A DNA stretch of 64,000 nt. Source: an uncultured Clostridium sp. (lineage in GTDB: Bacteria; Bacillota; Clostridia; TANB77; CAG-465). The notes under the pieces were generated by a model, which searched no databases, was not told the DNA's origin, and saw only the letters and a program-made list of their open reading frames with translations. Position numbers and translations under genes: made by a program. Shown here piece after piece: positions 11,056 to 63,832 of the stretch (the stretch's first letter is position 1; each line of letters opens with the position of its first letter). The DNA lies in contig CANAIR010000002.1 of NCBI GenBank assembly GCA_947361355.1, positions 46,976-110,975 on the forward strand, in the 5' to 3' direction.

Positions 11056-11083
11056 TAATAAAGACAATATAGGAGGAATATAA

Positions 11084-11797: not shown

Positions 11798-12612
11798 TGG
11801 CAAGAGTAGTATTTTGGAGTCCTGATGCTACTATGACAGGTAATACTCATACTGCAGTAGCTGTTAGTAGTTTAATGGGCATTGAGCATAAGGCAAGCTG
11901 CCTTTTAATGCAAGGTAATTTTGATTCTAAAAAAATAGAATCTTCATATACAATGTATGAACAATTAAGAGAAAGTGGAGCTTTGGAAAATGCAAACTTG
12001 GGTGTAAGTGCATTAATTAGATTGGTAACAAGTAATAAACTTACATCTGATGCTATACAAAACTATGCAAAACCCGTTTTAAAGGGAAGGTTAGATTTAC
12101 TTTATGGTATGACAGCCAAAGATAAAGACGGATATAAAGATTTGGTAAATAATTTGCCATATATTACAAGAAAAGCGGCAGAAATATATGATTTAGTATT
12201 TATCGATTTGCCAAAAACAGCAAATTATAAATATATAAAAGATACTTTGGCTGATTCTGAAATAGTTGTTTGTACAGTTAATCAAGACGTTGTAAAACTA
12301 GATCAATTTTTTGAAAAAGTTCAAAAGATAGATGAACTTAAAGAAAAAAATGTTATTTATGTGATTTCAGATTATGAAAATAAATCTAAATTTAATATAT
12401 CAAATATTAAAATAAAATATAGAATAAAAGATGAAATATATGCTGTACCACATAATTTCGTTTTTACAGATGCCTGTAATTCAGGAGATGTAATAAATTT
12501 CTTTTACAAAAATATCAATTCAGATCCAAAAGATTATAATGGATATTTTATAAGTAAAACAAATGAAATAGTTTCAAAAATATTTGAATTATCAAAGTTA
12601 AAAGATAATTAG
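11797..12612 (+). CDS. Degenerate ParA/MinD-fold protein (TadZ/CpaE-like pseudo-ATPase)
   Basis: VVFWSP…TGNTHTAVAVSS replaces the deviant Walker A. DLVFIDLP is Walker-B-like. Translationally coupled, with its ATG overlapping the upstream stop. Confidence 0.5.
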   Translation: MARVVFWSPDATMTGNTHTAVAVSSLMGIEHKASCLLMQGNFDSKKIESSYTMYEQLRESGALENANLGVSALIRLVTSNKLTSDAIQNYAKPVLKGRLDLLYGMTAKDKDGYKDLVNNLPYITRKAAEIYDLVFIDLPKTANYKYIKDTLADSEIVVCTVNQDVVKLDQFFEKVQKIDELKEKNVIYVISDYENKSKFNISNIKIKYRIKDEIYAVPHNFVFTDACNSGDVINFFYKNINSDPKDYNGYFISKTNEIVSKIFELSKLKDN

Positions 12613-12641
12613 TTTTTGAATAAAAATAAAAAAGAGGTGAT

Positions 12642-14537: not shown

Positions 14538-14541
14538 TAAT

Positions 14542-16599: not shown

Positions 16600-16671
16600 A
16601 AGAGGTATAAACATTATAGTTTGATAATGTTGTACATATATTAAAACATAAAATAAGGGGGGAATTTTATT

Positions 16672-17163
16672 ATGGATAATGCTCAAAAGGCAATCATGAT
16701 TGGTGTTGGTTTGTTTATTACTATTATTGTTATTGCAGCTGTTATGCTTATAACAGGTATGGGACAAGATATGTTACAATCAGGTCAACAACAAGTATCT
16801 AACATTTCTGCTAGTTTACAAGCGCAACTAACTTCAGATTTTGATGGAACAACTGTAACTGGTGCACAAGTTATAACAGCAGTTAAAAGATATTATCAAG
16901 ATGATACAATGGCAATATATGTTATAAATGGTACTAATCAAAAAAGTTATGGTAAAATAAATGCTACTGGTTATGCAAAAGGAACATATGACCAAGTTAC
17001 ATCAGTTGCAGCAAATAATTCACCAGAAAAAGTTGGAACTTTAACTGATACATCTGCTGCTAATACAGCAAATTATGTACCAAACTCAGCTAAATATAAA
17101 GCTAACATTTTAAAGATAAAAGGAACTAATGATGTTGTTGGTATTTGTTTTGAAAAAGACTAA
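16672..17163 (+). CDS. Pilin-like protein (short polar leader + N-terminal hydrophobic helix), paralog group A
   Basis: MDNAQKAIMIGVGLFITIIVIAAVML…; motif …FDGTTVTGAQVITAVKRYYQDD… is shared with the ORFs at 17354 and 18593. Strong RBS. Confidence 0.5.
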   Translation: MDNAQKAIMIGVGLFITIIVIAAVMLITGMGQDMLQSGQQQVSNISASLQAQLTSDFDGTTVTGAQVITAVKRYYQDDTMAIYVINGTNQKSYGKINATGYAKGTYDQVTSVAANNSPEKVGTLTDTSAANTANYVPNSAKYKANILKIKGTNDVVGICFEKD

Positions 17164-17353
17164 TCAACAAACATATCATTTTTATTATTACAACAAGGTA
17201 TATATTAAATTATATACCTTTTGTAATATAATTATTATAAATATAATTTAAATTATAATTTTATATATATTAAAATATCTATTATTTATATGTTTTAAAA
17301 ATTACTCATATCAATGAATAATTTTTAAAGCACATATTTTAAGGAGGAATATT

Positions 17354-17812
17354 ATGGATGAAAGTTCACTTATGCGAGCCTTAACAGTTGGTGTTGGTGT
17401 ATTTATAGCAATAGCAACAATAACAGCAGTATTATCGTATTATAATACTGCAAAAGATATGGTACAAGCAGTTGGTACTGGGGCAGACTTTGATAGAGAA
17501 TATTCAAATTATATAGAAAATACATTATTAAAAACACAAAATGTTTCATATATAACTGGAAATGATGTTAAAAATTTACTTAACTATTTTTATAAAGATG
17601 AAAAAGTTCAAATAAATATAGCATTAATAACACCATTGTATTTGGATAATGATGATAATTTATTATCATCAAATTTATCTGGAAATAATGTGAATAATCA
17701 TGAAAAGTTATATAATTCATTGAGTTCTAAAATAGTACCTACACAAAAATTTAAATTGGAAAGACAAAATACTTCTGGAAAATTAATTATAAATTTAAAT
17801 GGTATAAAATAA
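17354..17812 (+). CDS. Pilin-like protein, paralog group A
   Basis: MDESSLMRALTVGVGVFIAIATITAVL…; motif …ITGNDVKNLLNYFYKDEK…; strong AGGAGG RBS. Confidence 0.5.
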   Translation: MDESSLMRALTVGVGVFIAIATITAVLSYYNTAKDMVQAVGTGADFDREYSNYIENTLLKTQNVSYITGNDVKNLLNYFYKDEKVQINIALITPLYLDNDDNLLSSNLSGNNVNNHEKLYNSLSSKIVPTQKFKLERQNTSGKLIINLNGIK

Positions 17813-17823
17813 AGGAGTAGATT

Positions 17824-18573
17824 ATGGAGGATACATTACAAAGAGTATTTGCAATTATAATTGCTGTTGTTATATTCTTTTTATTACCACTATATATAGC
17901 TTTTGAAAAAAAAGATGATATTTCCTATTCACTTGCTTTAAGAATTACTACAAATTTTGTAGATAATGTGAAAAGCAAAGGATATTTAAGTAAGGAAATG
18001 TATGACAATTTCATTTCAAGGTTATCAATAACTGGTAATGTATATGATATAAAACTTGAACATATAGCGAAAAAATATAATCCAGTTATATATTCTTATG
18101 ATAATGACTATAAACAAATAAAAGAAAAATTTGATTATAATACTTATAAAGAGCAGTTTGAAAATGGTCAGATTAACTCTGCTACTGGAATTTATAAAAA
18201 CTTAGTATTAGCTTATGAGCTATATGAAGTTAGATATAATGAATCAAATATTATAGAGGCATTAGATTTGAATGAACAAATTATAAGACGTGTAGAAGAA
18301 GGGACATCTGAGGCTGAAAATTATAAGTCTGTAAACAGAGATAATATTCCTGTTATATCTGGAATATATCGAACAGATGAAAATAAAGCCTTATATCCTA
18401 TGAGTAAAGGTGATGAATTTACAGTTATTATAAAAAATACAAATACTACTGTTGCGAGTATATTATTTAATACTTTAACTTTTGGGGCTAATACAGGTAA
18501 TGATACTAAGGTATATATTAATTATGGCGGTTCTATACAAAGTGAAGAATATAGAAAAACAGTATTAGAATAA
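17824..18573 (+). CDS. Pilin-like protein, paralog group B (homologous to the N-terminal ~200 aa of the 715-aa protein)
   Basis: N-terminal hydrophobic helix. …TTNFVDNVKSKGYLSKEMYDNFISRLSITGNVYDIKLE… aligns to the 19480 ORF (…TTNFVDEVINCGYIDQQMYDNFIQKLSITGNLYDIQLE…). Confidence 0.5.
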   Translation: MEDTLQRVFAIIIAVVIFFLLPLYIAFEKKDDISYSLALRITTNFVDNVKSKGYLSKEMYDNFISRLSITGNVYDIKLEHIAKKYNPVIYSYDNDYKQIKEKFDYNTYKEQFENGQINSATGIYKNLVLAYELYEVRYNESNIIEALDLNEQIIRRVEEGTSEAENYKSVNRDNIPVISGIYRTDENKALYPMSKGDEFTVIIKNTNTTVASILFNTLTFGANTGNDTKVYINYGGSIQSEEYRKTVLE

Positions 18574-18592
18574 CTATTGGAGGTGATTTATT

Positions 18593-18985
18593 TTGGATTT
18601 GGCAGCTAATAAAGCTATAACAATTGCTACCGCAGTTTTTATAACTATTATAATAACATCTGGTGTGTTATTTTCAATTGGGCAAATGCAAAGTATATAT
18701 TCACAAGTGTATGAAACAGATATTAATATTCAAAATAGATTTGGAGAATTTGAATCATTTGATAATACTGAAAAGACAGGTATAGATGTAATGAATGTGT
18801 CTAAAAAGTACAGAGATTCAGATTTAGTAAATATATACATTTTAGGAAGCAGTGAAAAATTAAATACTTCTGCTGGTATTAATCGTCTTCCATCAAGGCT
18901 TGGTACAAATCCAGGTGAGGTATTATATAAAAGTACTGTAAAAGATGTAAATGGAAGAATAACAATAGAATTTACAAAAAAATAG
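18593..18985 (+). CDS. Pilin-like protein, paralog group A (TTG start)
   Basis: MDLAANKAITIATAVFITIIITSGVLF…; GGAGG RBS 9 nt before the TTG. Confidence 0.45.
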   Translation: MDLAANKAITIATAVFITIIITSGVLFSIGQMQSIYSQVYETDINIQNRFGEFESFDNTEKTGIDVMNVSKKYRDSDLVNIYILGSSEKLNTSAGINRLPSRLGTNPGEVLYKSTVKDVNGRITIEFTKK

Positions 18986-18997
18986 AGGTGAAATATT

Positions 18998-19462
18998 ATG
19001 GAAGATTCAGCATTTGATGCGTTATACACAGGTACATATGTATTAGTATTTATTATAGCTCTTACTATAACACTTTATTTGTTTAACTCTATTATAGACT
19101 TTTCAGACTTAGCATATGAATTTAATACAAAAGTTGAAGACAATTCTACCATAATTGATGCTCCAGTTGAGGCAAATAGATTACTTTCTGGTGAAGAAGT
19201 ATTATCCTATTATTACAATTATGTTAAGCATGATTTATATTCCGAAAAGGTATCACCAGTTAATTATAACGTAAATATACAAATTGGTAGAACTACAAAC
19301 GAGCTTGCTGGTATGTCACTTTTAGAAATTTCACAAGCAATCGGAATGGAAAATAAGTTTATTTTAAGATACAAAGGCGCAAAATATGGCGATGATGGTG
19401 TAAAAAATATAGATATAGATATAGTGAAAGCAACACAAGAACAAATAGATGCTTTAGTTTAG
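18998..19462 (+). CDS. Pilin-like protein (N-terminal hydrophobic segment)
   Basis: MEDSAFDALYTGTYVLVFIIALTITLYLF…; AGAGGTGA RBS. Confidence 0.45.
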   Translation: MEDSAFDALYTGTYVLVFIIALTITLYLFNSIIDFSDLAYEFNTKVEDNSTIIDAPVEANRLLSGEEVLSYYYNYVKHDLYSEKVSPVNYNVNIQIGRTTNELAGMSLLEISQAIGMENKFILRYKGAKYGDDGVKNIDIDIVKATQEQIDALV

Positions 19463-19479
19463 AAAGGTGTGAAATATAA

Positions 19480-21627
19480 TTGAAGGATAATTTAAGTATT
19501 ATTGTAACTATGCTTGTTTTTGTTATTTTGATAGTTATATTTCCATTATATAACTACTTTGAAAGACAAGATGATATGTCATATAATATTGTTTTAAAGT
19601 CTACGACAAACTTTGTAGATGAAGTTATAAATTGTGGTTATATAGATCAACAAATGTATGATAATTTTATTCAAAAATTATCAATAACAGGAAATTTATA
19701 TGATATCCAGTTAGAAGCCCATAAAAGAACGTATACTAAAGATCCATATAATATGCGCTTAGATACTTTTATTGAGCAGTATAATATTGATTATAATAAT
19801 GATATTTTTGATCAAGGTACTGGTGTTACTAAACAAAGTAATGTAAGTGTAGATAATAAAGTGTTAAAAAATGGCGTTTATTACCTAAATGTTGGAGATC
19901 AAATATATGTAAAATTGAAAAATAGTGGAACTACTATGGCTGGCGCAATATTTAATATAATAGTTCCAACTTCTAAGCAAGAAAGAGTTACAGTAAATTA
20001 TGGTGGAATTATAAAGAATAACGCATGGGAAAAACAAGATATTAGTAATTTGTTTCAAAAAGACATTTATACAGAAATATATGTAGATAAGGCAGTTACA
20101 CCTGGACTTACTAATAAAATTAATGATAGACCTACATATTCATTAAATGAAAGTAGTGAAATAAAAGTAGTAGTTAAAATATTAAATTACGAAAAATCCC
20201 AGGAATCAAATATAGCAAGTATTTTAAAAGACAATTTAAAAATAACAGGATTTGAATCTAAAAAAACAATATTGCCTACAAGTGTAATAAAAAGTGCAAG
20301 CTCACCAGAGTGGGTAGCAACATATAATGTAAATAGTATTTCATCTTCTGTTGAAGAATACTTTGGTGGAAATACATATAAAACATGTCAAGTAGAATTA
20401 GAACCTGATTTAATTCAAGGAAACTATTTTAAAAATAGTTTAACCTCATCTGATACATTTGTAATAAAGAAAAATAACACAGATACTGCTACACCTGATA
20501 TTACAGGTGCATATCTAAATGGTAGTTCTTCAGTTGTAAATAACATTGAAATTGGCAGTACTGTAATTTATTATTTGAATTATTATGATTCTACATTAAT
20601 TGCATCAGCAAATGAAATGAAAAACTATATATCAGCTACTAATTTTACTTATGATGACTTGGTTGTTCAACATGATAGTGGTTCCAAAAGATTTAAGCTT
20701 ACTTTTTCAAATGTAAGCGGTGAACCAGATGTTAGAATAAAAATAAATGTTGCAGGTGATTGGGCCCAATACTCACAAGGTGGTACAATAAAAAAAGTAG
20801 GGACACTTTCATCTCGTGAATCAACTCTTAAGTTTTTACCAAAAAATTATACAACACCTGGTATATATAAATTTGTTATACCTTCTGATGGTAGATATAG
20901 ATTAGAAGTTGTAGGTGCAAATGGTGGTGGAAATGCTAACTATTCCTCAAATAGGGGAAGTAGAGGCGGAAAAGGTGGAAGAACCGCTGGTACTATTGCA
21001 CTTACCAAAGGGCAAGTTTTATACATTGTTGTTGGTGGCTCAGGTAAGTCTGCAATTTCTGGCTCTGTTGGTACAGGTGGTTATAATGGTGGTGGAAACG
21101 GTACTAAATCATTAACTGATAACACAAAATTTGGTTTTGGTGGCGGTGGAGCTACTGATATAAGATTGTCAGATACTAATATCTCTAGTCCAATTGATGG
21201 CTTAAGCAAGAGAATTATTGTTGCTGGCGGAGGCGGAGGCGCTGACGATATTGATATTGATGGAACAACAAATTCTGGAGTACTTGGTAGTATAGATGAT
21301 GGTTCAGGAGGATTTGGAGCTGGAGGATTAAATAATGGTGGTTATGGTTTTGTTGATGGTTCAGTATCAGGTGGTGCTAAACCAGGAACAACAACATCAG
21401 GATTTAGTCTAGGAATAGGACAAAATGCTTCTTCTAGTAATGATGCTGGAGGTGGAGGCGGAGGCTATTATGGTGGCTTTGCATCTCCAACTTCGAATTC
21501 AAATTCAGGTGGAGCTGGTGGTTCGGGATACATAGCAGCAGGATTTATAGACATTGTAGGCGCTAATGGAGTAAATTCATCAACTATTGGAAATGGAAGT
21601 GCTTCTATAACATATATGGGAAAGTAA
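19480..21627 (+). CDS. Large pilin-like protein with a ~270-aa glycine-rich (polyglycine-motif) C-terminal domain; candidate tip/adhesin subunit
   Basis: TTG start after AAAGGTG. N-terminal hydrophobic helix and paralogy to the ORF at 17824. The C-terminal domain is full of spaced GGxGG/GGGGG motifs (GANGGGNAN, GGKGG, GFGGGGAT, AGGGGGADD, DAGGGGGGYYGG, SGGAGGSGY). Confidence 0.55.
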   Translation: MKDNLSIIVTMLVFVILIVIFPLYNYFERQDDMSYNIVLKSTTNFVDEVINCGYIDQQMYDNFIQKLSITGNLYDIQLEAHKRTYTKDPYNMRLDTFIEQYNIDYNNDIFDQGTGVTKQSNVSVDNKVLKNGVYYLNVGDQIYVKLKNSGTTMAGAIFNIIVPTSKQERVTVNYGGIIKNNAWEKQDISNLFQKDIYTEIYVDKAVTPGLTNKINDRPTYSLNESSEIKVVVKILNYEKSQESNIASILKDNLKITGFESKKTILPTSVIKSASSPEWVATYNVNSISSSVEEYFGGNTYKTCQVELEPDLIQGNYFKNSLTSSDTFVIKKNNTDTATPDITGAYLNGSSSVVNNIEIGSTVIYYLNYYDSTLIASANEMKNYISATNFTYDDLVVQHDSGSKRFKLTFSNVSGEPDVRIKINVAGDWAQYSQGGTIKKVGTLSSRESTLKFLPKNYTTPGIYKFVIPSDGRYRLEVVGANGGGNANYSSNRGSRGGKGGRTAGTIALTKGQVLYIVVGGSGKSAISGSVGTGGYNGGGNGTKSLTDNTKFGFGGGGATDIRLSDTNISSPIDGLSKRIIVAGGGGGADDIDIDGTTNSGVLGSIDDGSGGFGAGGLNNGGYGFVDGSVSGGAKPGTTTSGFSLGIGQNASSSNDAGGGGGGYYGGFASPTSNSNSGGAGGSGYIAAGFIDIVGANGVNSSTIGNGSASITYMGK

Positions 21628-21636
21628 GGTGAAAAT

Positions 21637-22878
21637 GTGAAAATAACAGATTTAGCTTTAGTATTTATTGGAATCATATTACCAATTATAATAGTAGTAT
21701 ATATAAATGTTTCTTTTACAATTAAAGCTCAAGAACAAGAAATGTACTATCAAAATATAATTGATATAGCAGCGCAAGATGCAGCAAATCAAATGAAGGA
21801 AGTCGAAAATGATGATTCAAATGTAGATTATGGATATTCTGGAGTAGATAACCAAAAAATAAGTGTTAATGCACAAATAGCTGTTGACACATTTTTAAAT
21901 AATTTATATAATAACTTTAATATAAAAGGTAATGAGGCGGCGCAAAAATATTTACAACTTTTTGTACCTGCAATTGCAATTATAGATTATGATGGTGTCC
22001 AAATATCATCAGTTGAATCCTCAAAAGATATGACAGATACAGAAGTACAAAGTGGAAAAATAAATACATATAATAGTGATTGGAGTGTTACAAAGCATGT
22101 ATTAAAACCAAAAAGATACTATACATATACTTATTCTATAATTAGAGAAGGTGGAGCAAGCGGAATTGAATATAAAATGGTAGATGGAATATCTTCTAAT
22201 CCAAATGCTGTTTCATATCATGAAATAGAATTTACTATGGATGATTATTTAACACATAGACAGTATGAAAAAAATGATACTAAAGAAAGCCAGCCAGAAA
22301 GTTTTTATTTAACAGATGGTAAGTATAATGATAGTCTTGTAAGTGGTATAAGAGCTAGTGAAGCGTCAAATGCAGCTTCATTTAAACAGGAAGTAATACA
22401 AAAACTTTCAAGTAAACGTGAAGATACAATTGCAAATACTTTAATAAAAGAAATGACATATGCAACAAATGCTAATAACTCATATGCTAGAAGTGCAGGA
22501 ATTACGTATAATTTCTCATTTCCAACAACAACACATGAAGAATTATATGGAACAATAAAAAATGTAGGATTTATGGCCTTTGTACAGGGGTTATCAGTTG
22601 GTACAAAATATTTGAACACAAAAGCATACGGACTAAATAACTTAGGTCTTGCAACAAGATACTATTTTACAATTCCTAATATAGATTCAAAATATAAGCT
22701 TAATTTATATCATAAAGATACAACTTGTCCAGAGTATGTGGTTTCTAAGGTAGATGATATATCACCTAGATATGCTATAACAAAACAACAAGCTGCATCA
22801 ATGAAAGTTGGATGTACAATTAATGATATAGAATTAACATTCCAAGGATTTTATCCTTGCCCTATATGTAGTCCATAA
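21637..22878 (+). CDS. N-terminally anchored protein with a Cys-rich C-terminus (CPEY…GCT…CPICSP); last gene of the pilus-like operon
   Basis: GTG start 5 nt after AAGGTG. Hydrophobic N-terminal helix. Four Cys residues lie in the last ~60 aa. Confidence 0.5.
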   Translation: MKITDLALVFIGIILPIIIVVYINVSFTIKAQEQEMYYQNIIDIAAQDAANQMKEVENDDSNVDYGYSGVDNQKISVNAQIAVDTFLNNLYNNFNIKGNEAAQKYLQLFVPAIAIIDYDGVQISSVESSKDMTDTEVQSGKINTYNSDWSVTKHVLKPKRYYTYTYSIIREGGASGIEYKMVDGISSNPNAVSYHEIEFTMDDYLTHRQYEKNDTKESQPESFYLTDGKYNDSLVSGIRASEASNAASFKQEVIQKLSSKREDTIANTLIKEMTYATNANNSYARSAGITYNFSFPTTTHEELYGTIKNVGFMAFVQGLSVGTKYLNTKAYGLNNLGLATRYYFTIPNIDSKYKLNLYHKDTTCPEYVVSKVDDISPRYAITKQQAASMKVGCTINDIELTFQGFYPCPICSP

Positions 22879-26635: not shown

Positions 26636-26893
26636 ATGAAAATTAGATTCAATAATATTATAAAAAATAAAGAGGCATTAAAAAAAGATAGATTAAATGG
26701 TGAAATGAGTAAAAAAGAATATATTAAAGAAAAATCTTCAAATAATAATACAAAAAAGAATAAAGAAATAATAAATAGAAACGTTTTGAAAGAAGAAAAA
26801 CAAAGGAATATATCTGATACTTATGTAACACCAATATTTAAAGTATATAAAAATGGACGGAGACATTATAAAATATGTACCAAATGTTGTTAA
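26636..26893 (+). CDS. Small Lys-rich ORF with strong RBS, overlapping the start of the M23 peptidase gene; possibly the true 5' end of the spoIIQ-like gene (frameshift)
   Basis: AAAAGGAGA RBS; overlaps the next ORF by 41 nt in a different frame. Confidence 0.3.
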   Translation: MKIRFNNIIKNKEALKKDRLNGEMSKKEYIKEKSSNNNTKKNKEIINRNVLKEEKQRNISDTYVTPIFKVYKNGRRHYKICTKCC

Positions 26894-27716
26894 AGATAAA
26901 AAACAAAATGAAGATAGCAAAAATGAAGAAGTAAAAATTGAAAACCAAATTAAAGAAATCGATGATAGTAAATACAATAAAAAAGTAAATTCAAACAATG
27001 AAAAAAAAGTACCAAAAAGTTCATTTTTCCTATTTTTTTTAATGGTACTGCTTGCAGTTTCTAGTGTAATGTTTGCATATAAAAATTACAAAAATTTAAA
27101 TCAAGAAAGTTATTCTGTATATAGTAGTATTGATGAAGATAATGTAAAGAATGAAAATAAGACAGAAGAAGAACAAAGTGCTCAGTCTAATAATAAAGAT
27201 GTAATTCAAAAACAAGAAAATCAAAATCAAGTAGAAAAAGCTAACCAAAAAAGCAAAAGTGCAACTAATATTAAAAATCCTACTAAGACACAAACGCCCA
27301 AAATTATACCATTAAATTTTGTAAAACCAATTGATGGTGAAGTACAAAAGATATATTCAAAAGATAAAGTTATATATTCAAAGACTTTAGAACTTTGGAA
27401 AACACACGAGGGAATAGATATAAAAGCTAATGAAAATGCTATTGTAAAATCTATTGAAAAAGGTACAGTAGAAAAAATATATGATGATTCTTTTTATGGA
27501 AAAACTGTAGTAATAGATCATGGTCAAGGATACAAAAGTAGTTATTCAAATTTAAGTGAAGATATTTTTGTAAAAGAAAAGCAAGTTATAACAAAACTTA
27601 CTAAAATAGGAAAGATTGGAAAAACAGCAATAGGAGAGATAAAAGATGATTCACATTTACATTTTGCACTTATGAAAAATAATGTAATTATTGATCCAAG
27701 TAGTATATTTAAATAA
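26853..27716 (+). CDS. spoIIQ: M23/LytM-family peptidase, SpoIIQ-like (TM anchor + LytM domain with intact HxxxD and HxH)
   Basis: HEGIDIKA and HLHF motifs, with a TM segment before the LytM domain. Positioned between spoIID and spoIIID. The annotated ATG has no RBS. Confidence 0.65.
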   Translation: MDGDIIKYVPNVVKDKKQNEDSKNEEVKIENQIKEIDDSKYNKKVNSNNEKKVPKSSFFLFFLMVLLAVSSVMFAYKNYKNLNQESYSVYSSIDEDNVKNENKTEEEQSAQSNNKDVIQKQENQNQVEKANQKSKSATNIKNPTKTQTPKIIPLNFVKPIDGEVQKIYSKDKVIYSKTLELWKTHEGIDIKANENAIVKSIEKGTVEKIYDDSFYGKTVVIDHGQGYKSSYSNLSEDIFVKEKQVITKLTKIGKIGKTAIGEIKDDSHLHFALMKNNVIIDPSSIFK

Positions 27717-54878: not shown

Positions 54879-54941
54879 ATATATTATAATTTAGAATAAA
54901 GAGTCACCATTTAACATATCATGTTGTGTGGTGATATTTTT

Positions 54942-55541
54942 ATGAAAGAATTTATAAAAGAATACATTAATGAAAATATAAAAATAATTTCAGTAATTTT
55001 TTTTAGTATTATTATAGGAGTAGTATTTGGACTATTTTTGTATCAAATTATTACTCCTGAGATTAGAACTGATTTAGTAAATACAATGAAATCAACATTA
55101 GATTTAACAAAGCAGGAAAATTTTGAGGGAATAAATATTATTAAAAATGGAATGGTTTCAAATATATTTTTAGTTATTATAATATATTTAATTTCTCTTA
55201 CTTTAATATCCCCATATTTAACTGGGTTGCTTTCATTATTTAAGGGAATATCAATTGGAATATATATACCAACACTTTTTCAAATATTTGGTGCGTCCAA
55301 AGGAATACTAGCAATATTTTTATTAGTTGTAATACCAAATTTAGTATATATTCCCTCATATATTTTTTTGGCTACTAATTCAATAAATTTTCATTATTCT
55401 TTAATAGGAAATGAAAATAAATTTACATTATTAATAAAAGAAATTATAAAAATAGTCATAGGTTTTTCAATTATGTTTTTAGGAGTAGTCTTAGAACAGC
55501 TTACTTCGTATTGGATAATATCGATATACAGTACATTGTAA
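54942..55541 (+). CDS. spoIIM: Stage II sporulation protein M (polytopic membrane protein)
   Basis: About 200 aa with 5-6 TM and SpoIIM-like topology. Conserved spoIIM-xerD adjacency. The ORF is open from 54921. Confidence 0.65.
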   Translation: MKEFIKEYINENIKIISVIFFSIIIGVVFGLFLYQIITPEIRTDLVNTMKSTLDLTKQENFEGINIIKNGMVSNIFLVIIIYLISLTLISPYLTGLLSLFKGISIGIYIPTLFQIFGASKGILAIFLLVVIPNLVYIPSYIFLATNSINFHYSLIGNENKFTLLIKEIIKIVIGFSIMFLGVVLEQLTSYWIISIYSTL

Positions 55542-55650
55542 AAATATGAAATTCGACAAAATTATAAAACATTACATAATTTTCAATAAAATACTTGCAA
55601 ATTTGAAAAAAATAGTGTACAATATTGATGTAAATACGGAGGAACTAAAC

Positions 55651-56529
55651 ATGAAAATTATAATAGACGAATTTATTGAAAGTTTAAAAGCTAGACAAGC
55701 TTCACAAAATACAATTGCATCATATGAGAGAGATATAATGCAATTTAGTAATTACTTTGAAGGACAAAATAAAAAGATATTTGATTTAACTAAAGAAGAT
55801 ATGCAAGATTATATTAATCATTTAATAGCACAAGGAAAATCGAATTCTACTATATCTAGAAGTACAGCATCTATAAAAAGTCTTTATAGATATTTATTGA
55901 ATAAAAATCTAGTAGAAGAAAATATTGCAGAAAGTATAGAAGCTCCAAAGGTTGATAGAAAAGAACCTATGATACTTACACAATCAGAAATAGAAACTTT
56001 ACTTGAACAACCAGATTTATCAGAATTAAAAGGACAAAGAGATAAAGCAATGCTTGAAATATTATATGCTACAGGTATAAGAGTAACAGAACTTATTTCT
56101 TTAAAATTAGAAGACGTTAATTTAACAAATGGCTATATAAAAGTTAAAAAGAAAAATAGTGAAAGACATATTCCATTAGGAAATCTTTCTTTAAAATGTC
56201 TAAAAGAATATATAAATAAAGTAAGACCTTTATTAATTAGGACTGAAGATGAAAAAACATTATTTATAAATACAAATGGTCAAAAAATGACAAGACAAGG
56301 TTATTGGAAGATTTTAAAACAATACAAAGAACAAGCAAAAATCGATAAAGATATAACTCCACATACAATTAGACATTCTTTTGCGGTTCATATGTTACAA
56401 AATGGTGCAGAAATAAAAACAGTCCAAGAATTATTAGGACATACTGACGTTGCATCTACTATGATGTATACACAAATGTCTAACCTTAATTTAAAGGATG
56501 ATTATTTAAAATCTCATCCAAGAGCGTAA
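55651..56529 (+). CDS. xerD: Tyrosine site-specific recombinase XerD/XerC (chromosome dimer resolution)
   Basis: R…HxxR…Y catalytic signature (…TPHTIRHSFAVHMLQNGAEIKTVQELLGHTDVASTMMYTQ). GGAGG RBS precedes the ATG at 55651. A TTGCAA-17-TACAAT promoter lies at 55596-55624. Confidence 0.85.
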   Translation: MKIIIDEFIESLKARQASQNTIASYERDIMQFSNYFEGQNKKIFDLTKEDMQDYINHLIAQGKSNSTISRSTASIKSLYRYLLNKNLVEENIAESIEAPKVDRKEPMILTQSEIETLLEQPDLSELKGQRDKAMLEILYATGIRVTELISLKLEDVNLTNGYIKVKKKNSERHIPLGNLSLKCLKEYINKVRPLLIRTEDEKTLFINTNGQKMTRQGYWKILKQYKEQAKIDKDITPHTIRHSFAVHMLQNGAEIKTVQELLGHTDVASTMMYTQMSNLNLKDDYLKSHPRA

Positions 56530-56739: not shown

Positions 56740-57375
56740 ATGTTTAATATAAAAAGATATGTAAAATTTATGTTTATTATAACAGTTATATATATTTCAA
56801 TATCTATTATGATACCATTTAAAGAAATAGTAGCTGCATCAAGTATTAGCATAAGTGGACCAACTGTTGTAATTGAAGGTCAAAGTGCTGTATTTAATGT
56901 AGTATATCCACAAAATGCAATATATATTAATTTATCAAGTGGAGATGTAGTTTTAAATGGTTTTCAAGCTACTATTAGTGTTACTGGTAGTGGTAATTCA
57001 AGAAAAATTATTTTAAATAATGTAAGAGGAACTGGAAATGGCAGAAGTATATCTATTGCTACTGGTACAGGTTATATAGGATCAAATAAAATTGAAGGAG
57101 TTACTTCGAATGCGTTTAGAATTAAAGGTGTAAATGATAGTACTGCTACACCAAAGCCAAATAAACCTCAAACTAATGTTAAACCAAATAATACTACTCC
57201 ACCTGTAAATAACAATCAACAACAAAATGGTCAAGAAAATAAAGATCAAAATAATAATGCAAAAGAAGAACCAGAAAAAAAAGAAGAGGAAAATAAGGAG
57301 CAAAATAAAGAAGAACAACCAGATAAAAATATAGATTACGATGCAAAAATTCCAATACCAAATACAGGAAAATAG
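56740..57375 (+). CDS. Secreted protein: signal peptide, beta-rich domain, low-complexity Pro/Asn/Gln/Glu linker, ending …IPIPNTGK-stop (sortase-motif-like but no membrane anchor)
   Basis: N-terminal hydrophobic signal; C-terminus PNTGK followed directly by TAG. Immediately upstream of a class-B-like sortase. Confidence 0.5.
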   Translation: MFNIKRYVKFMFIITVIYISISIMIPFKEIVAASSISISGPTVVIEGQSAVFNVVYPQNAIYINLSSGDVVLNGFQATISVTGSGNSRKIILNNVRGTGNGRSISIATGTGYIGSNKIEGVTSNAFRIKGVNDSTATPKPNKPQTNVKPNNTTPPVNNNQQQNGQENKDQNNNAKEEPEKKEEENKEQNKEEQPDKNIDYDAKIPIPNTGK

Positions 57376-57397: not shown

Positions 57398-58138
57398 ATG
57401 TTAAAAACAAATTTAAGTAATAAAAAGATTATAATAATTCTTATTTCTGTTTTAGTTGTAGCAATTATAGGCTTTATAATTTCTTTTTTCCTATCTAGAA
57501 ATAGTTTTTTTAATGAAGAATCAGAAGATAAAAGTAAAGTTATAACAGATTCGAAACAAGAAAATAGAGATTTGCAAAAAGAAATATCAGTAATTAATGA
57601 AACATATAAGGATGCTAAAGCATGGATTAAAGTACCTGGCACTAGTATAGATTCACCTGTGTATCAATCAGATAATAATGATAGATATTTAAGAAACGAT
57701 AAAGATAATGCACAAACAAGATGGGGAGAAAATTTCTTAGATTATAGATGTAATATAGATAATATAAATAAAGAAAAGCAACATTATATTGTATATGGTC
57801 ATAACACTGAAATAGATTCAAGATTTACACCACTTTTAAATTACAAGAATGAGGATTTCTTTAAAGAGCATAAATATGTAGAATTTGCTACATTAAATGG
57901 TAGCTATAAATTTGAAGTATTTTCTGCTTATTCAACAAGTACAGATTTTTACTATATAGATACAACTTTTAGAAACCTAGATGAATTTGGAAATTATATA
58001 AAATCACTAAAAGAAAAAAGTGAATATGAAACAAATGTAGAAATTACAAGAGAAGATACAATTTTAACTTTATCTACATGTGATTATGATATTGCAGATG
58101 GAAGATATGTTGTACATGCAAAACTAATTAATGAATAA
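57398..58138 (+). CDS. Sortase, class B-like (N-terminal TM; YIVYGHN His; TLSTC Cys; RYVVHAK Arg)
   Basis: Catalytic His-Cys-Arg in the canonical order; about 246 aa, the typical SrtB size. Confidence 0.8.
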   Translation: MLKTNLSNKKIIIILISVLVVAIIGFIISFFLSRNSFFNEESEDKSKVITDSKQENRDLQKEISVINETYKDAKAWIKVPGTSIDSPVYQSDNNDRYLRNDKDNAQTRWGENFLDYRCNIDNINKEKQHYIVYGHNTEIDSRFTPLLNYKNEDFFKEHKYVEFATLNGSYKFEVFSAYSTSTDFYYIDTTFRNLDEFGNYIKSLKEKSEYETNVEITREDTILTLSTCDYDIADGRYVVHAKLINE

Positions 58139-58388: not shown

Positions 58389-59273
58389 ATGGGTATTACA
58401 AAAAATATCGGTATAGCTGCAGTAAGCGCAGCAATGATTGGAATTTCAGCAGTGATGCTTTGGAGTCCATCAGATGATGTAAAAAAAGCAGAGCCAACAC
58501 CGATGAAGCCTAAGGTAACTTCTGAGAAAACTCTTGGTCGGCTTCCTAAAAAGTCTGATAAAGACAAAGAAAAAAAGGAAGAGAAGAAAGAGGAAGAAGT
58601 TTCCTACGAAGTAGTATATAATGGTTATGATAACTATGACTATTATGGCTATGGTTATGGCGGAGTAGGCGGAGATGCTTCGTATACAACAGCTGAACCT
58701 AATGCACATGTTGAAGAAAATACAGTTGCTAACCAGGCAGTTGTTGAGCAGCAAATTCAAGAAGATGCTGAGGAGCAGGCTGCTGAGGAAGCAAAGAAGG
58801 AAGTTGCTGAAAAGGAACTTCAGGTTGTTTATCTTGATGAAAGTAAAGAAACTACTACAGTTCAGGAACCAGTAGTAGTTGTAACAGATGATGGAAAAGT
58901 AACAACATCTACAGATGTCGGTGAAAGTGGTTCATCATCTACAGGCGACAACCGTGAGGTTATTGATTTAGGAGTAATTTCATTTGGAGATGAATCTACT
59001 GTATCAACTTCAACTCAGGCTGCAGCATCTGTTGCTACGCCACCACAGGAAGTTGTAGATACACAACCTCAGCCTGTAGTAACTCAACAGCCAGTTGTAG
59101 CAGAGCCTGTAGTAGAAGAGTTACCAGTAATTGAAACAGTTGTAACATCAGAGCCAGTACCAGACTATACAGGTTCAACAGTTGTTGCAGAGGGCTTTGA
59201 CGGAGCTGTTATCGATGGTGTGGAACTTCTTGAGGGTGAAGGGCTTTTAGAAGTAGTAATCATGAACGAGTAA
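58389..59273 (+). CDS. Secreted acidic low-complexity protein; C-terminal module paralogous to the C-terminus of the 664-aa protein at 60242; locally elevated GC
   Basis: Signal peptide (GIAAVSAAMIGISAVML). Shared motifs with the 60242 ORF (AEPNAHVEENTVANQAVVEQQIQEDAEEQAAEEAKKEV…; DNREVIDLGVISFGDEST). Codon usage is visibly GC-richer than its neighbours. Confidence 0.6.
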   Translation: MGITKNIGIAAVSAAMIGISAVMLWSPSDDVKKAEPTPMKPKVTSEKTLGRLPKKSDKDKEKKEEKKEEEVSYEVVYNGYDNYDYYGYGYGGVGGDASYTTAEPNAHVEENTVANQAVVEQQIQEDAEEQAAEEAKKEVAEKELQVVYLDESKETTTVQEPVVVVTDDGKVTTSTDVGESGSSSTGDNREVIDLGVISFGDESTVSTSTQAAASVATPPQEVVDTQPQPVVTQQPVVAEPVVEELPVIETVVTSEPVPDYTGSTVVAEGFDGAVIDGVELLEGEGLLEVVIMNE

Positions 59274-59377
59274 AATTTATTAGAAAGAATGGTCAAATTT
59301 TTGATCATTCTTTTTTTGGTGCAAATTATGACAAACTTTTGCATTTATATATGGTATAATAGTTTTGAGGTGGGAAT

Positions 59378-59683
59378 ATGAAATATAAATATGAAGATGG
59401 AAATTTAAATATTAATTTAAATGAAGAATTAGATATGAAAAATTGTAAGTTATTAAGAACGGTAATAGATGGTTATATTATGAAATATCAACCAAAAGAA
59501 TGTGTACTGGATTTAAGTAATGTTGAATTTATGGATAGTAGTGGTATTGGACTTTTAATAGGAAGATATAATCTACTTAAAATGTTAGACTCTAAAATGA
59601 CAATTATAAATCCAACAAGTAGTATAAAAAGAGTATTAGAATTATCTAATATAGGAAAAAGTATAACTATGAGGTGTGAATAA
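59378..59683 (+). CDS. spoIIAA: Anti-sigma-F factor antagonist SpoIIAA (STAS domain)
   Basis: …LDLSNVEFMDSSGIGLLIGRY… matches SpoIIAA, including the phosphorylatable Ser in DSSG. Confidence 0.85.
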   Translation: MKYKYEDGNLNINLNEELDMKNCKLLRTVIDGYIMKYQPKECVLDLSNVEFMDSSGIGLLIGRYNLLKMLDSKMTIINPTSSIKRVLELSNIGKSITMRCE

Positions 59684-60132
59684 TGAATAATTTTATAAAA
59701 ATAGAAATAAAGGCATTACTTGAAAATGTAGCCTGTGCAAGGGTTGCTATAACATCTTTTGTTTCTAATTTAGAAATTACAATAGATGAATTAATGGATA
59801 TAAAAACGGCATTATCAGAGGCTGTTACAAATAGTATAGAACATGGATATGAAAACATATTAGATGAAAACTCTACCGTTGAAATTAAAGCATATATTTA
59901 TGAGCAAGATGATGATAGCTTTGTAAAATTGGAAATAAAAGATAGAGGAATAGGAATAGATGATATAGAACTTGCGCTTACTCCTACATATACAACAAAA
60001 CCAGAACTTGAACATGCTGGCATGGGATTTACTATAATGGAAAGTTTCATGGATGAGATTTTAATAGACTCAGATAAGGAAAATGGTACAGTTGTTACTT
60101 TGATAAAAAAGATTAAGAAAAAAAAGTCATGA
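59683..60132 (+). CDS. spoIIAB: Anti-sigma-F factor SpoIIAB (GHKL serine kinase)
   Basis: …ELMDIKTALSEAVTNSIEHGY…TKPELEHAGMGFTIMESFMDE… is near-identical in motifs to B. subtilis SpoIIAB. Confidence 0.9.
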   Translation: MNNFIKIEIKALLENVACARVAITSFVSNLEITIDELMDIKTALSEAVTNSIEHGYENILDENSTVEIKAYIYEQDDDSFVKLEIKDRGIGIDDIELALTPTYTTKPELEHAGMGFTIMESFMDEILIDSDKENGTVVTLIKKIKKKKS

Positions 60133-60241
60133 TTTGTTAAAAAAATCGAAAATTTCTAAATATTTTTTACATAAGTATTGTAAATTCTTTTATTTAAGTA
60201 TATAATCATAGTATATTATATGAGGTTGATGGAGGAAGTAT

Positions 60242-62236
60242 ATGGAAAGAAAAGAGTTTAACAGTGTAGAAGAAGCAATAGAATCCCTAAATAGTGTTAG
60301 AAACATTGATTATTCAAGTGTAGATAATGTAGGTGAGATTACAGAAAGAGAATTTTATAACAACTTAATGAATAATTTTATGGGAACAAGAAATATAAGA
60401 TTTACTGCTGAACAAAGAAGAAATTATCAAGAGGCTTTAAGAAAAAAAGGTCTATTATCTTATGCTGATTGGAAAAGAAGACAACCTAATAGAGGGCAAA
60501 AGGTTACATGGAAAGACTCTGTTGAAAAGGGCTCACTTGATGTTCCTGTTAATTTGTTTAGCAAATTAGTTGAAACAGATGATGAAAGAAAATTTGAATA
60601 TATAAAAGAAGTTGCTACTGATGAAAGAAAATCAGATGTTGGTATAAAATGGCTTGATAAAAGTGCAGGTATTTTAAAAGATCTTATTTCTAAAAATAGA
60701 GACTCTAAAGCTACTAAATCAATAAATGCTGATACCAAAGTAATATTTGATGGTCAAAGTAAAGGAGAAAGAATTCTTTCTGATACTCAAAAAGATATTT
60801 CAAATTTTGTAGCAAGCGTATTAAATGAAAAAGAAAAACAAAAACAAAGAGATAATAGGACGGTTGATCAGATAATGGCTCAATCAGAAAAGGATTTATC
60901 AAATTTTGTTAATGATATCTTAGAGGAAAGGAAAGCTCAAGGACAGCAACAACATGCTAAAAAACGTGGTATTACAAAAAAACAAGAATTTGATGATTTC
61001 TTTACTAAAAGTCATAGAAATTTTAGAAATCATGATGAAGTAATTCAAGCTTTAAATTCTATTAAAAAAATAGATTTTGATAGAGGACCAAGTAAAGAAG
61101 AACAACAAAGATTTTATTACGATGTTATGCAAACTTTAGAAGATGCTAATGATTTGGAAATTCCAGACGGTGGAGAAGGTAGTGACATAGCTTTTCAATA
61201 TAGGCAAGCTTTAGGAAATATTGGTTGTAAAACGATGAAAGAGTTGAAAGTAGCTGGTGCTATGAATAGAAGTGTAAAGCGTCCTGCTAAAGTAATTGAT
61301 TCAATACTTAATTCAAGAAGACATAATGATAACAAAGGATTTAGAACTGCAGTAGATAAATTAAGAGATGATTATAAATTAAGAGATTGGATAGATGATA
61401 CTAAAATAACATTATTAGACAGAGATGAAAGAAAAAGGGAAAAACTTGAAAGAAGAGAAAAGTTTGTAAGAAGAGAAGAACCTGAAGAAAGAGAAAAAGA
61501 AAAATATCCAGTTCCAGTTACTAAAAAAAGAGGATTTTCTTCTATTAAAAAAGCTTTTACAAGAGCTGGAATAGCAACATTAGCATTTTTAGGAGTAACA
61601 GTAGGTGCTGCAGGTTCGCTTGGTAGCAAAACTCAAGCAGAAGATGTAGATGAAAAAGTACCTAAACCACTTAAAATAGAAGATCAAAAAGATAATAAGT
61701 CTAAAGATAAAGTAAAAGAAAATAAAAAATTAGAAAATAACCTTAAAGAAGCAGGTATAAATGCACAAAGTTTTGAAGATGAATTAAGAGATAGTACAAA
61801 TTATGTTGGAGGTAATTACTATAATTATCAAGCAGACCAAAATTATACTGTTGCACCAAATTCACATACTGAACAAAATACACAAGCTAATGAAAAAGAA
61901 GCTCAAATAAGAGCAGAAGAAGATCAAGCTGAGCAAGAAGCTATTGAAGCAAAAGAAGAAATTGCAGATGTTGAGTTAGAAGTAGTTATGGATGGTAATA
62001 ATGAAATAGGTGAAATAGTAGATAGTGGTACAAAAGCTCCAGAAACAGTAGTAGTTGGTAATGATGGGTCAACCGATATTCAAAGCCCAGTAACTCTTCC
62101 TGGTGATGGAAGTGATTCTATCATTGAGGATGATAGAGAAGTTGAGGATATGGGGGAAATTTCATTTGGAGATGAAGATTTTTCAGAAGATCTTGAAGAG
62201 GAAGATAAAACAGTTGATGATGATTACACAAGATAA
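60242..62236 (+). CDS. Single-pass membrane protein: ~430-aa cytoplasmic domain with internal duplication, one TM helix, extracellular acidic module paralogous to the 58389 gene; occupies the position normally held by sigF
   Basis: TM at …AGIATLAFLGVTVGAAGSLG…. Internal repeat (KDISNFVASVLNEKEKQKQ / KDLSNFVNDILEERKAQGQ). C-terminal …VAPNSHTEQNTQANEKEAQIRAEEDQAEQEAIEAKEE…DDREVEDMGEISFGDEDF. Confidence 0.6.
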   Translation: MERKEFNSVEEAIESLNSVRNIDYSSVDNVGEITEREFYNNLMNNFMGTRNIRFTAEQRRNYQEALRKKGLLSYADWKRRQPNRGQKVTWKDSVEKGSLDVPVNLFSKLVETDDERKFEYIKEVATDERKSDVGIKWLDKSAGILKDLISKNRDSKATKSINADTKVIFDGQSKGERILSDTQKDISNFVASVLNEKEKQKQRDNRTVDQIMAQSEKDLSNFVNDILEERKAQGQQQHAKKRGITKKQEFDDFFTKSHRNFRNHDEVIQALNSIKKIDFDRGPSKEEQQRFYYDVMQTLEDANDLEIPDGGEGSDIAFQYRQALGNIGCKTMKELKVAGAMNRSVKRPAKVIDSILNSRRHNDNKGFRTAVDKLRDDYKLRDWIDDTKITLLDRDERKREKLERREKFVRREEPEEREKEKYPVPVTKKRGFSSIKKAFTRAGIATLAFLGVTVGAAGSLGSKTQAEDVDEKVPKPLKIEDQKDNKSKDKVKENKKLENNLKEAGINAQSFEDELRDSTNYVGGNYYNYQADQNYTVAPNSHTEQNTQANEKEAQIRAEEDQAEQEAIEAKEEIADVELEVVMDGNNEIGEIVDSGTKAPETVVVGNDGSTDIQSPVTLPGDGSDSIIEDDREVEDMGEISFGDEDFSEDLEEEDKTVDDDYTR

Positions 62237-62431
62237 ATTTTGACTTTAAAATATTGACAATCATAAAAATTGAGATGAATTTTGTTTCGTCTCAATTTTT
62301 TTTAAACCATATATATTATAATATTTAATAATATAATAGTATAAAATGCAGATTTATACATAAATAATTGAAAAAAAGCTTAGAATAGTATATAATATAA
62401 TAACATATAATATGTTGAAAGGAATGATAAC

Positions 62432-63832
62432 ATGTTAAAATTATATAATACACTTACGAGAAAAAAAGAAAAGTTTGAACCAATAGATAAAGATAAAAAG
62501 ATTGTTAAGATATATACATGTGGACCAACCGTGTATAATTATGCTCATATAGGTAATATGAGAGCATATATTTTTATGGATACTTTAAGAAAAGTATTAA
62601 AATATAATGGATATAATTTAGAACATGTTATGAATATAACTGATGTTGGGCATTTGACATCTGATGCAGATGAAGGCGAGGATAAAATGGAAAAATCTGC
62701 AAAAGCTCAAAAAAAATCAGTATATGAAATAGCAGATATGTATACAAAAGCTTTCTTTAATGATTTAGATAGTTTAAATATCCAAAAACCTGAACATATT
62801 GTTAAGGCAACAGAACATATAAAAGAAATGGAGGAATATGTAAAGGAAATTGTAGAAAATGGTTATGGTTATGAAACCTCTAAAGGAATATATTTTGATA
62901 CATCTAAGTTGAAATCATATGGTGAACTATCAAAAATAAACATAGATAATCAAAAGGCTGGAGCAAGAATTGATGTAGATAAGGAAAAGAAAAATCCATT
63001 GGATTTTGCACTTTGGATAAAAGCCCCAAAAGAACATATAATGAAGTGGGATAGTAAATTTGGTCTTTGCTATCCAGGCTGGCATATAGAATGTAGTGCA
63101 ATGTCTAGGAAATACTTGGGTGAAAAATTTGATATACATACAGGTGGAGTTGACCATATACCAATTCATCATGAAAATGAAATAGCACAATCAAAAGGAG
63201 CTACTGGAATAAATCCTGCAAATATCTGGATGCACGTTGAATTTTTGTTAATTGACAACGGAAAAATGTCAAAAAGCTTAGGAAATGTATATAAAATTTC
63301 ACAATTGGAAGAGAGAGGTTTTGAAGCATTATCATATAGATATCTATCATATACATCACATTATAGAAATAAGTTAAATTTTACATGGGAAGGATTAAAG
63401 TCTTCACAAGTGTCACTTAATAGATTAAGGGAATTAACATTGTCTCATAAAAATAAAGAATGTAGAGTAGATGATAAAATATTAGATGAGTATAGACAAA
63501 AATTTTTAAATGCAATAAATGATGATATTAATATGCCTGTTGCTATGTCAGTTGTATGGGAGGCTGTAAAAATTGATAAAAAATCAGATGATATTTTTAA
63601 ATTAATAATGGAATTTGATAAAGTTTTATCATTAAAGTTAGATAAGGAAAATGATAAAAAAGAAAGTTTGATAGAAAAGCTACCTGAAGATATAAAAGAG
63701 TTACTACAAAAAAGAGAAGTGGCTAGAAATAAAAAAGATTATGATTTATCTGATTTAATTAGGGATAAACTAAAAGAAAAAGGGTATATAGTCAAAGATT
63801 CAAAAGAAGGACAAAAAATAGAGAAAGTGTAG
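62432..63832 (+). CDS. cysS: Cysteinyl-tRNA synthetase
   Basis: HIGN (AHIGNMRAY) and KMSKS motifs, with a zinc-binding Cys in the catalytic domain. Confidence 0.95.
   Translation: MLKLYNTLTRKKEKFEPIDKDKKIVKIYTCGPTVYNYAHIGNMRAYIFMDTLRKVLKYNGYNLEHVMNITDVGHLTSDADEGEDKMEKSAKAQKKSVYEIADMYTKAFFNDLDSLNIQKPEHIVKATEHIKEMEEYVKEIVENGYGYETSKGIYFDTSKLKSYGELSKINIDNQKAGARIDVDKEKKNPLDFALWIKAPKEHIMKWDSKFGLCYPGWHIECSAMSRKYLGEKFDIHTGGVDHIPIHHENEIAQSKGATGINPANIWMHVEFLLIDNGKMSKSLGNVYKISQLEERGFEALSYRYLSYTSHYRNKLNFTWEGLKSSQVSLNRLRELTLSHKNKECRVDDKILDEYRQKFLNAINDDINMPVAMSVVWEAVKIDKKSDDIFKLIMEFDKVLSLKLDKENDKKESLIEKLPEDIKELLQKREVARNKKDYDLSDLIRDKLKEKGYIVKDSKEGQKIEKV

Follow-up and report, generated by a model that had tools for sequence, protein, structure and literature searches.

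A spoIIAA-spoIIAB pair lacking the adjacent sigF gene across a clade of uncultured AT-rich gut Clostridia

The spoIIAA-spoIIAB-sigF operon is regarded as a near-universal signature of endospore formers, and the co-transcription of its three genes is thought to help fix the proportions of sigma-F, of its inhibitor and of the inhibitor's antagonist. Here we ask what has become of the third gene at a locus where only the first two are found together. The locus lies in a stretch of 64,000 nucleotides (nt) from an uncultured Clostridium sp. (NCBI GenBank assembly GCA_947361355.1, contig CANAIR010000002.1, positions 46,976 to 110,975), which is called the window below, which has a G+C content of about 26% and in which coordinates are counted from the first letter; the features described around the pair are all on the + strand. 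An earlier note, made from the letters of this stretch, had placed here spoIIAA, spoIIAB, a gene for a 664-amino-acid (664-aa) membrane protein and cysS, and had left it open whether sigF has been displaced to another part of the genome or the pair is an orphan partner-switching module. The genes are found as it placed them, with the spacer between spoIIAB and the 664-aa gene, given there as 110 nt, measuring 109 nt.

The two genes are indeed spoIIAA and spoIIAB, the second being recognized more firmly than the first. The spoIIAB gene (59683..60132) encodes a 149-aa GHKL protein, the anti-sigma F factor and SpoIIAA kinase, which clears the equivalog model TIGR01925, ‘anti-sigma F factor’, with 165.7 bits vs. 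a cutoff of 135, and to which the RsbW models give 64–76 bits, far under their cutoffs of 145–155; the protein shares 49% identity with SpoIIAB of B. subtilis, and the motif TKPELEHAGMGFTIME that had been quoted for it is present. The spoIIAA gene (59378..59683), directly upstream and overlapping spoIIAB by ATGA at 59683, encodes a 101-aa anti-anti-sigma factor with a STAS domain (Pfam STAS, 2.3e-14). Its top NCBIfam match is spore_II_AA (TIGR02886), with 83.9 bits vs. an equivalog cutoff of 114.75 that is thus not reached, and it clears the anti-anti-sigma superfamily model TIGR00377 (68.9 vs. 53.45). Both the phospho-acceptor serine in DSSG (FMDSSGIG) and the equivalent of Glu21 (in NEELD), the residue that displaces sigma-F, are kept (roles in PMC7340262).

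The third cistron is absent from its expected position, as the earlier note had stated. A tblastn search with B. subtilis SigF gives no sigma-70-family gene across the window, even at E<1, and the canonical tricistronic arrangement, with sigF directly after spoIIAB, is not found there. Contigs of 20 or more separate samples, in assemblies from ENA, NCBI and Logan, encode an identical SpoIIAB, with the same junctions throughout and with the order 294-aa gene, spoIIAA, spoIIAB, 664-aa gene, cysS and femAB. We then compared 80 GTDB species-representative loci carrying SpoIIAB, grouped by the identity of SpoIIAB to the window protein. An adjacent sigF (at most 400 nt downstream) is present in 73/73 representatives with SpoIIAB 46–52% identical, which bears out the claim that the operon is nearly invariant, and in 0/7 representatives with SpoIIAB 55–67% identical, these seven all being metagenome-assembled genomes (MAGs) of uncultured ‘Clostridia bacterium’ or ‘Clostridium sp.’ with a G+C content of 26–33%. 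Eight further contigs of the clade, with SpoIIAB 70–80% identical, are also without adjacent sigF. Moreover, among the loci listed, nearly all AT-rich metagenomic sigF loci whose upstream DNA is long enough are tricistronic. The sigF-less spoIIAA-spoIIAB pair is a character of an entire clade of uncultured gut Clostridia with AT-rich DNA, and in the literature we found no sporulating lineage described as lacking sigF or as having it unlinked.

The pair stands at its ancestral locus, because XerD, and spoIIM with it, lie upstream as in Bacilli. XerD is found 3–8 kb upstream of spoIIAA both in the loci of Bacilli and in the window, where the gene for a xerD-type tyrosine recombinase (55546..56529 as the longest open reading frame (ORF), with Pfam Phage_integrase and SAM-like domains; gene callers put the start at ~55651, giving 292 aa) adjoins a spoIIM-like gene (54921..55541; Pfam SpoIIM, NCBIfam spo_II_M being the best model but below cutoff). 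The latter begins the conserved block up to spoIIAA and is upstream of spoIIAA in all clade loci. It is specifically sigF that is gone from the ancestral locus of the pair. The upstream order is common to the clade, running rpoA, rplQ, HIGH_NTase1, RNase H, spoIIM, xerD, a ~210-aa protein, sortase B, a variable surface protein, spoIIAA and spoIIAB, and what varies is the gene after spoIIAB. In this species and in the relative with 80% identical SpoIIAB (contig L092) it encodes the 664-aa or a 620-aa protein and is followed by cysS; in the 70–73% relatives and on contigs L012 and L024 there are HSP33 and/or two RluD/RsuA-type pseudouridine synthases, then ctpB, veg, sipL and yunB; in L017 there are miaB and rho; and in the 55–60% relatives there is a DUF6514 protein. 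This conserved DUF6514 protein, directly after spoIIAB in the position expected for sigF, has ~80–92 aa (L013, 6515-6781; L014, ~10446-10690; L015, 1453-1725; L016, 5011-5289).

The pair is also under purifying selection like cysS, the ratios of nonsynonymous to synonymous substitution rates (dN/dS) vs. the 80% relative being 0.16 for spoIIAA, 0.125 for spoIIAB and 0.119 for cysS. In the SpoIIAB alignment the GHKL ATP-binding and catalytic residues are all kept (Glu46, Asn50, His54, Gly55, Thr99, Gly107, Gly109 and Thr130; roles in PMC10345196), and so are the sigma-contact residues Arg20 and Lys41 and the SpoIIAA-contact residues Thr49 and Glu104 (roles in PMC10345196 and PMC4166321). At otherwise invariant positions there are clade-specific changes, namely Glu16Val/Ile, Ile53Glu, Arg105His and Ser106Ala, together with an insertion of 3–4 residues. 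Arg105, the transition-state residue of the phosphotransfer, is His here and clade-wide (PELEHAG vs. PELERSG), and Glu16, near the SpoIIAA interface, is Val in the SpoIIAB of the window. Based on the roles given in PMC10345196, the substitutions lie on the SpoIIAA and catalytic side, not on the sigma side. Since they occur together with a SpoIIAA that falls below its equivalog cutoff, they suggest that the interface between kinase and antagonist may have co-evolved in the clade, and the sigma side of SpoIIAB looks unchanged.

The sporulation genes around the pair and in the relatives are numerous. In the window SpoIID (286 vs. cutoff 235) and SpoIIID (114.3 vs. 111.5) clear their equivalog cutoffs, and yqfC, yqfD, spoIIM, an M23/spoIIQ-like gene and mbl are present as well, while sipL, yunB, ctpB and a SigK-type sigma are encoded in the relatives. 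Among 180 Firmicutes genomes that have been surveyed, all spore-formers had sigF, sigG, sigE and sigK (bioRxiv 10.1101/2022.02.25.481979). Downstream of spoIID, a frameshift at an A-run (~26848-26852) divides the M23/spoIIQ-like gene into an 85-aa ORF (26636-26893) and a 287-aa ORF (26853-27716); the counterpart in the relatives is one protein of 338–347 aa. The split is evidently genuine, because the two pieces are separate in many independent assemblies of the species, and the 287-aa ORF keeps its own ATG, a transmembrane segment and the M23 domain.

The account that we favour, and that as a whole we hold to be rather probable, is that of a working spoIIAA-spoIIAB switch with sigF unlinked elsewhere and with the 664-aa protein as an unrelated neighbour. 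Of the two possibilities left by the earlier note, that of a displaced sigF in a sporulating organism is favoured by the constraint on the pair, by the kept sigma-contact residues Arg20 and Lys41, by the intact sporulation genes and by the presence of sigF in all of the surveyed spore-formers; that sigF lies elsewhere in the genome and that SpoIIAB binds its product are, as judged from these sequences, most likely. In the proposed mechanism, the pair would be a genuine functional partner-switching module of a sporulating uncultured clade, remaining at the ancestral position downstream of spoIIM and xerD, and sigF, the third cistron, would have been separated from it at the base of the clade. 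For a forespore sigma encoded elsewhere, most probably by the unlinked sigF, SpoIIAB would be both anti-sigma factor and kinase, with SpoIIAA the phosphorylatable antagonist of SpoIIAB. The site after spoIIAB would then have become a rearrangement breakpoint, taking different genes in each subclade. In the subclade of the window, the 664-aa protein would have been built from two copies of a helical domain fused to a copy of the anchor and ectodomain encoded just upstream of spoIIAA, with the ectodomain copies in the 294-aa and 664-aa genes held similar by gene conversion, and its gene would be transcribed mainly from its own sigma-A-type promoter.

It is noted that several results weigh against this account. 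No sigF was found in the ~94 kb seen for this species, and no sigma-70-family gene lies in the 10 kb to the left of the window, where there is an Agr-type module, or within 10 kb of spoIIAB in 15 clade loci; nor is there a sigma gene downstream, as far as infB in a relative, or around spoIID in two clade relatives. Metagenome contigs were also scanned for DNA that encodes QVQVSR[LI]EK, which is specific to SigF, in a codon-biased form; this gave at least 120 AT-rich sigF loci, none of those listed being attributable to the clade, a weak negative because the exact codon pattern was required. Moreover, SpoIIAA falls below its own equivalog cutoff, and the SpoIIAB of the clade departs from all canonical ones at functional positions (Glu16Val and Arg105His), so that the module has somehow changed. 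A frameshift interrupts the spoIIQ-like gene in every assembly of this species. No terminator separates spoIIAB from the 664-aa gene, so that the two may be co-transcribed.

The searches gave some further results on sigF itself. With B. subtilis SigF as the tblastn query against all of the clade loci fetched, the sole match is a SigK-type fragment in L012, and with the SigF motif against viral contigs only phage sigma-like fragments appear. The loci listed from the motif scan are all canonical, truncated, or deletion or fusion scars from other organisms. On L113, L127, L153, L157, L160, L170, L184, L191, L200, L204, L215 and others, the canonical AT-rich operon runs spoIIAA-spoIIAB-sigF-spoIID(-M23/spoIIQ). 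The textbook clostridial continuation is sigF-spoVAC/AD/AE, unlike the sigF-spoIID order of many AT-rich lineages. On four unrelated metagenome contigs, L103 (12501-13157), L102, L173 and L117, the 3' half of sigF is fused in frame to a foreign 5' end, which is a dacF-like signal peptide in L103, a pilin-like N-terminus in L173 and the C-terminus of a glycogen-branching enzyme in L117. These fusions look like deletion scars, in which spoIIAA-spoIIAB and the 5' end of sigF were lost in gut lineages without sporulation, or like assembly chimeras.

Three candidates for the clade's own sigF were considered and rejected. Since many AT-rich lineages have spoIIAA-spoIIAB-sigF-spoIID, sigF could have been kept beside spoIID; spoIID of the clade is within a spoIID-M23-spoIIID-mbl cluster with no sigma gene within 10 kb. 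The SigF group of L118, L122, L128 and L158, whose contigs end before sigF, does not belong to the clade, as its SpoIID is only 37–46% identical. In L190, clade-like HIGH_NTase1 and RNase H genes stand beside a SigF motif, and the contig is chimeric, with 1.8x coverage.

Among the other explanations, the one that survives best, though we regard it as improbable, is that sigF has truly been lost in the clade and that SpoIIAA and SpoIIAB control another sigma, most plausibly sigma-G, as the single forespore sigma. This agrees with the lack of sigF in any sequence examined, and the substituted invariant positions of SpoIIAB together with the divergent SpoIIAA could mean a changed partner network. 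It also has a precedent in B. subtilis, where an interaction between SpoIIAB and sigma-G is documented, namely that SpoIIAB binds sigma-G, according to the part of PMC3174212 that cites Serrano 2004 and Evans 2003. However, the visible sequence is but a small part of each clade genome, the four sporulation sigmas were present in all spore-formers surveyed (bioRxiv 10.1101/2022.02.25.481979), and Arg20 and Lys41 are unchanged, with the substitutions on the SpoIIAA and catalytic side (PMC10345196). In its boldest form, which we likewise regard as having little probability, the clade would form endospores without canonical sigF, with a SpoIIAA-SpoIIAB module remodelled by Arg105His and Glu16Val gating sigma-G or a highly divergent sigma, and thus with a different forespore initiator.

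Less probable still is that sporulation has been lost and that spoIIAA-spoIIAB is a decaying orphan, left over or co-opted for partner switching outside sporulation. An operon without sigF and a spoIIQ-like gene split into ORFs of 85 and 287 aa in all assemblies of the species speak for this, and scars deleting spoIIAA-spoIIAB and part of sigF do exist in other gut lineages (L102, L103, L117 and L173). This is difficult to bring together with dN/dS values of 0.13–0.16, equal to that of a housekeeping gene, with an arrangement that is stable over species spanning 55–100% SpoIIAB identity, and with the many other sporulation genes that are intact and syntenic clade-wide; even the 287-aa spoIIQ-like ORF retains its ATG, transmembrane segment and M23 domain.

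We now turn to the 664-aa protein (60242..62236), which has no Pfam or NCBIfam match. As the earlier note had read from the translation, its cytoplasmic part is duplicated and it is a single-pass membrane protein with an acidic extracellular part. The first copy of the N-domain is at 60242-60691 (aa 1–150), and the second, at ~61007-61441 (aa ~256–400), is weaker here and clear in the orthologues (independent E-values from 1e-13 to 1e-8). The sole hydrophobic segment, at ~61565-61633 (aa ~442–464), is followed by an acidic ectodomain at 61634-62233, with a tail of isoelectric point 4.05; with Lys and Arg on the N-side of the segment and the acidic tail on the C-side, the N-terminus would be cytoplasmic and the C-terminus outside. 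The N-domain is an uncharacterised, all-helical domain of ~150 aa. Among 1.84 billion cluster representatives, searched exhaustively with HMMER, just 25 proteins carry it, of which seven are full-length orthologues of 552–664 aa and the remainder are small soluble proteins with 1–3 domain copies. These soluble relatives are absent from the viral contigs searched, and the N-domain profile contains no conserved stretch fit for a locus scan.

The anchor and ectodomain of this protein have a paralogue on the other side of the pair, in the 294-aa acidic protein with an N-terminal anchor (58389..59273), which matches aa 426–645 of the 664-aa protein in BLASTP at 2e-18 across 236 aa. In the DNA of the two genes only collinear patches are left, with 74–79% identity. 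The shared module covers 58389-59273 vs. 61500-62236 in the window and 7595-8716 vs. 9685-11547 in L092, its motifs being YTxxPxxHxExxTxAN ... EL.VV ... DDREVIDLGxISFGDE, and the flanking paralogues of L092 also have a Cys/His-rich CxCHKCxxH motif in common. Because the paralogues within one genome (73–87 bits, in the window and in L092) are more alike than the orthologues between genomes (25–33 bits), their similarity indicates probable gene conversion across spoIIAA-spoIIAB.

The transcription signals set spoIIAA and the 664-aa gene each at the start of a possible unit. An intrinsic-terminator-like hairpin with a U-run at 59282..59318 (15-bp stem, −15.5 kcal/mol, z = −5.35, with 0/200 shuffles folding as well) ends the upstream gene, so that spoIIAA opens a new transcription unit. 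In the spacer after spoIIAB, which has no significant structure (z = −0.54), there is a sigma-A-type promoter-like site, TTGTAA-17-TATAAT, at 60178..60206 (10/12 matches), with a GGAGG ribosome-binding site between it and the 664-aa gene, and TTGTA(T)-N17-TATAAT also stands before the gene of the 620-aa orthologue in L092. A second intrinsic-terminator-like hairpin with a U-run follows the 664-aa gene at 62265..62304 (15-bp stem, −17.1 kcal/mol, z = −3.2). With strong terminator-like hairpins at either end of the three genes and no terminator after spoIIAB, transcription from the sporulation operon may in part read through into the 664-aa gene. Downstream, the cysteinyl-tRNA synthetase gene cysS (62432..63832; Pfam tRNA-synt_1e, 6.5e-94) has a promoter-like site ahead of it at 62368-62396, and Rfam has no match within the window.

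It could be supposed from these features, and the earlier note had implied, that the 664-aa protein takes the place of sigF. As the functional third member of the operon it would be a regulator anchored in the membrane, similar to an anti-sigma factor or to SpoIIE, by which the switch of sigma-F is replaced or modulated in the subclade. It has the strand and position of sigF, terminator-like hairpins bracket the three genes with none after spoIIAB, its N-in single-pass topology is like that of membrane anti-sigma factors, and its N-domain is moderately constrained, with a dN/dS of 0.35, the value for the whole gene being ~0.77 and the rest being almost free to change. By contrast, no anti-sigma, PP2C or other known domain is found in the protein by sequence or fold. 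It has neither the anti-sigma domain nor the adjacent cognate sigma gene of a membrane anti-sigma factor, and neither the phosphatase domain nor the ten transmembrane segments of a SpoIIE-type PP2C, having one segment only. Its ectodomain is copied from the neighbouring surface-protein gene, and the distant relatives of its N-domain are soluble, with 1–3 repeats and no known link to a sigma. Because its gene is confined to a subclade, most members with the sigF-less pair having unrelated genes at this position, and because it has its own conserved sigma-A-type promoter, a role as a substitute for sigF is not supported; no evidence ties it to sigma-F control, and we regard the supposition as quite unlikely, more so than either loss of sigF or decay of the pair. 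The 664-aa protein is probably a lineage-specific envelope or surface protein functionally unrelated to sigma-F control. Finally, that an assembly or binning error removed sigF is effectively refuted, as no point in its support was found and at least 20 independent contigs with the same junctions, together with the conserved synteny of the relatives, all sigF-less at the locus, speak against it.

Upstream of the 294-aa gene lies a sortase module. A class B sortase (57398..58138; TIGR03064, 175.4 bits vs. cutoff 153.75) is preceded by a 211-aa secreted protein (56740..57375) with an N-terminal hydrophobic segment and no Pfam match, which ends in ...IPIPNTGK at the stop codon, and the C-terminal PNTG[KR] is kept in six clade orthologues. 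The ~210–300-aa protein 5' of the sortase in the window and in L012, L092, L094, L216 and L218 ends in (I/N)P(I/N)PNTG(K/R), at the stop or one residue short of it. These proteins have no hydrophobic segment or charged tail past the motif, which is atypical for a sortase sorting signal.

Some other observations concern the surroundings of the locus. At 10015-22878 the window has a ~13-kb cluster that may encode a Tad/pilus-like apparatus. Its first gene is for a SAF-domain protein, and further on there are a P-loop/T2SSE-like ATPase (12642-14537), a 715-aa protein carrying a glycine-rich domain of ALK/LTK type (19480-21627) and several small proteins without Pfam match. In L017 the same cluster begins just past spoIIAB-miaB-rho. 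The left edge of the window borders the Agr-type quorum-sensing module, consisting of agrB, a HATPase_c_5 kinase and a LytTR regulator, and in one strain (L221, 1-4500) the end of a prophage, with a holin, a CHAP-LysM endolysin and an M78 peptidase/HTH pair, lies beside this module, while the strain of L222 is without this prophage end.

The bicistronic spoIIA operon is thus real across the whole clade and somewhat unusual, and its cause is likely an ordinary one, namely that sigF is unlinked. A clade with strongly selected switch genes and an unlinked sigF would mean that the operon is not obligatory, and the separate transcription raises the question of how the ratio of sigma to anti-sigma is set. 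Moreover, the organisms of this clade could be miscalled when gut MAGs are annotated by gene order or scored for sporulation signatures. If it were true that sigF is wholly absent, the core of four sigmas now accepted for sporulation would have to be revised. The 664-aa protein contributes an uncharacterised family of helical domains, with no link to the switch.

It is instructive to set the locus beside known systems. The 664-aa protein resembles single-pass membrane anti-sigma factors such as RsgI and RsiW in being N-in/C-out, with a cytoplasmic N-domain and an extracellular C-terminal region; by contrast with them, it has no anti-sigma domain by hidden Markov model (HMM) or fold and no cognate sigma, and its ectodomain is low-complexity, acidic and paralogous to a neighbour. 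In the chlamydial Rsb system the partner-switching genes are dispersed, apart from the sigma factor. That system (PMC11619594) is not one of sporulation and its target is debated, whereas the pair in the window is clearly orthologous to the sigma-F switch. With RsbV-RsbW-SigB the pair shares the logic of a STAS protein and a GHKL kinase, but the RsbW scores are low, no sigB or RsbU/RsbX is nearby, and the context in the window is one of sporulation genes. Compared with the spoIIA operon of Bacillus and Clostridium, the clade of the window is without the sigF cistron, has the substitutions and insertion in SpoIIAB and a SpoIIAA below the equivalog cutoff, and in the window a sortase B module and a variable surface protein are present 5' of the pair instead of an immediately adjacent dacF; yet it is this operon that the pair resembles in its orthologous SpoIIAB, the phospho-acceptor serine of SpoIIAA, the overlapping stop and start codons, the spoIIM-xerD neighbourhood and most of the functional residues.

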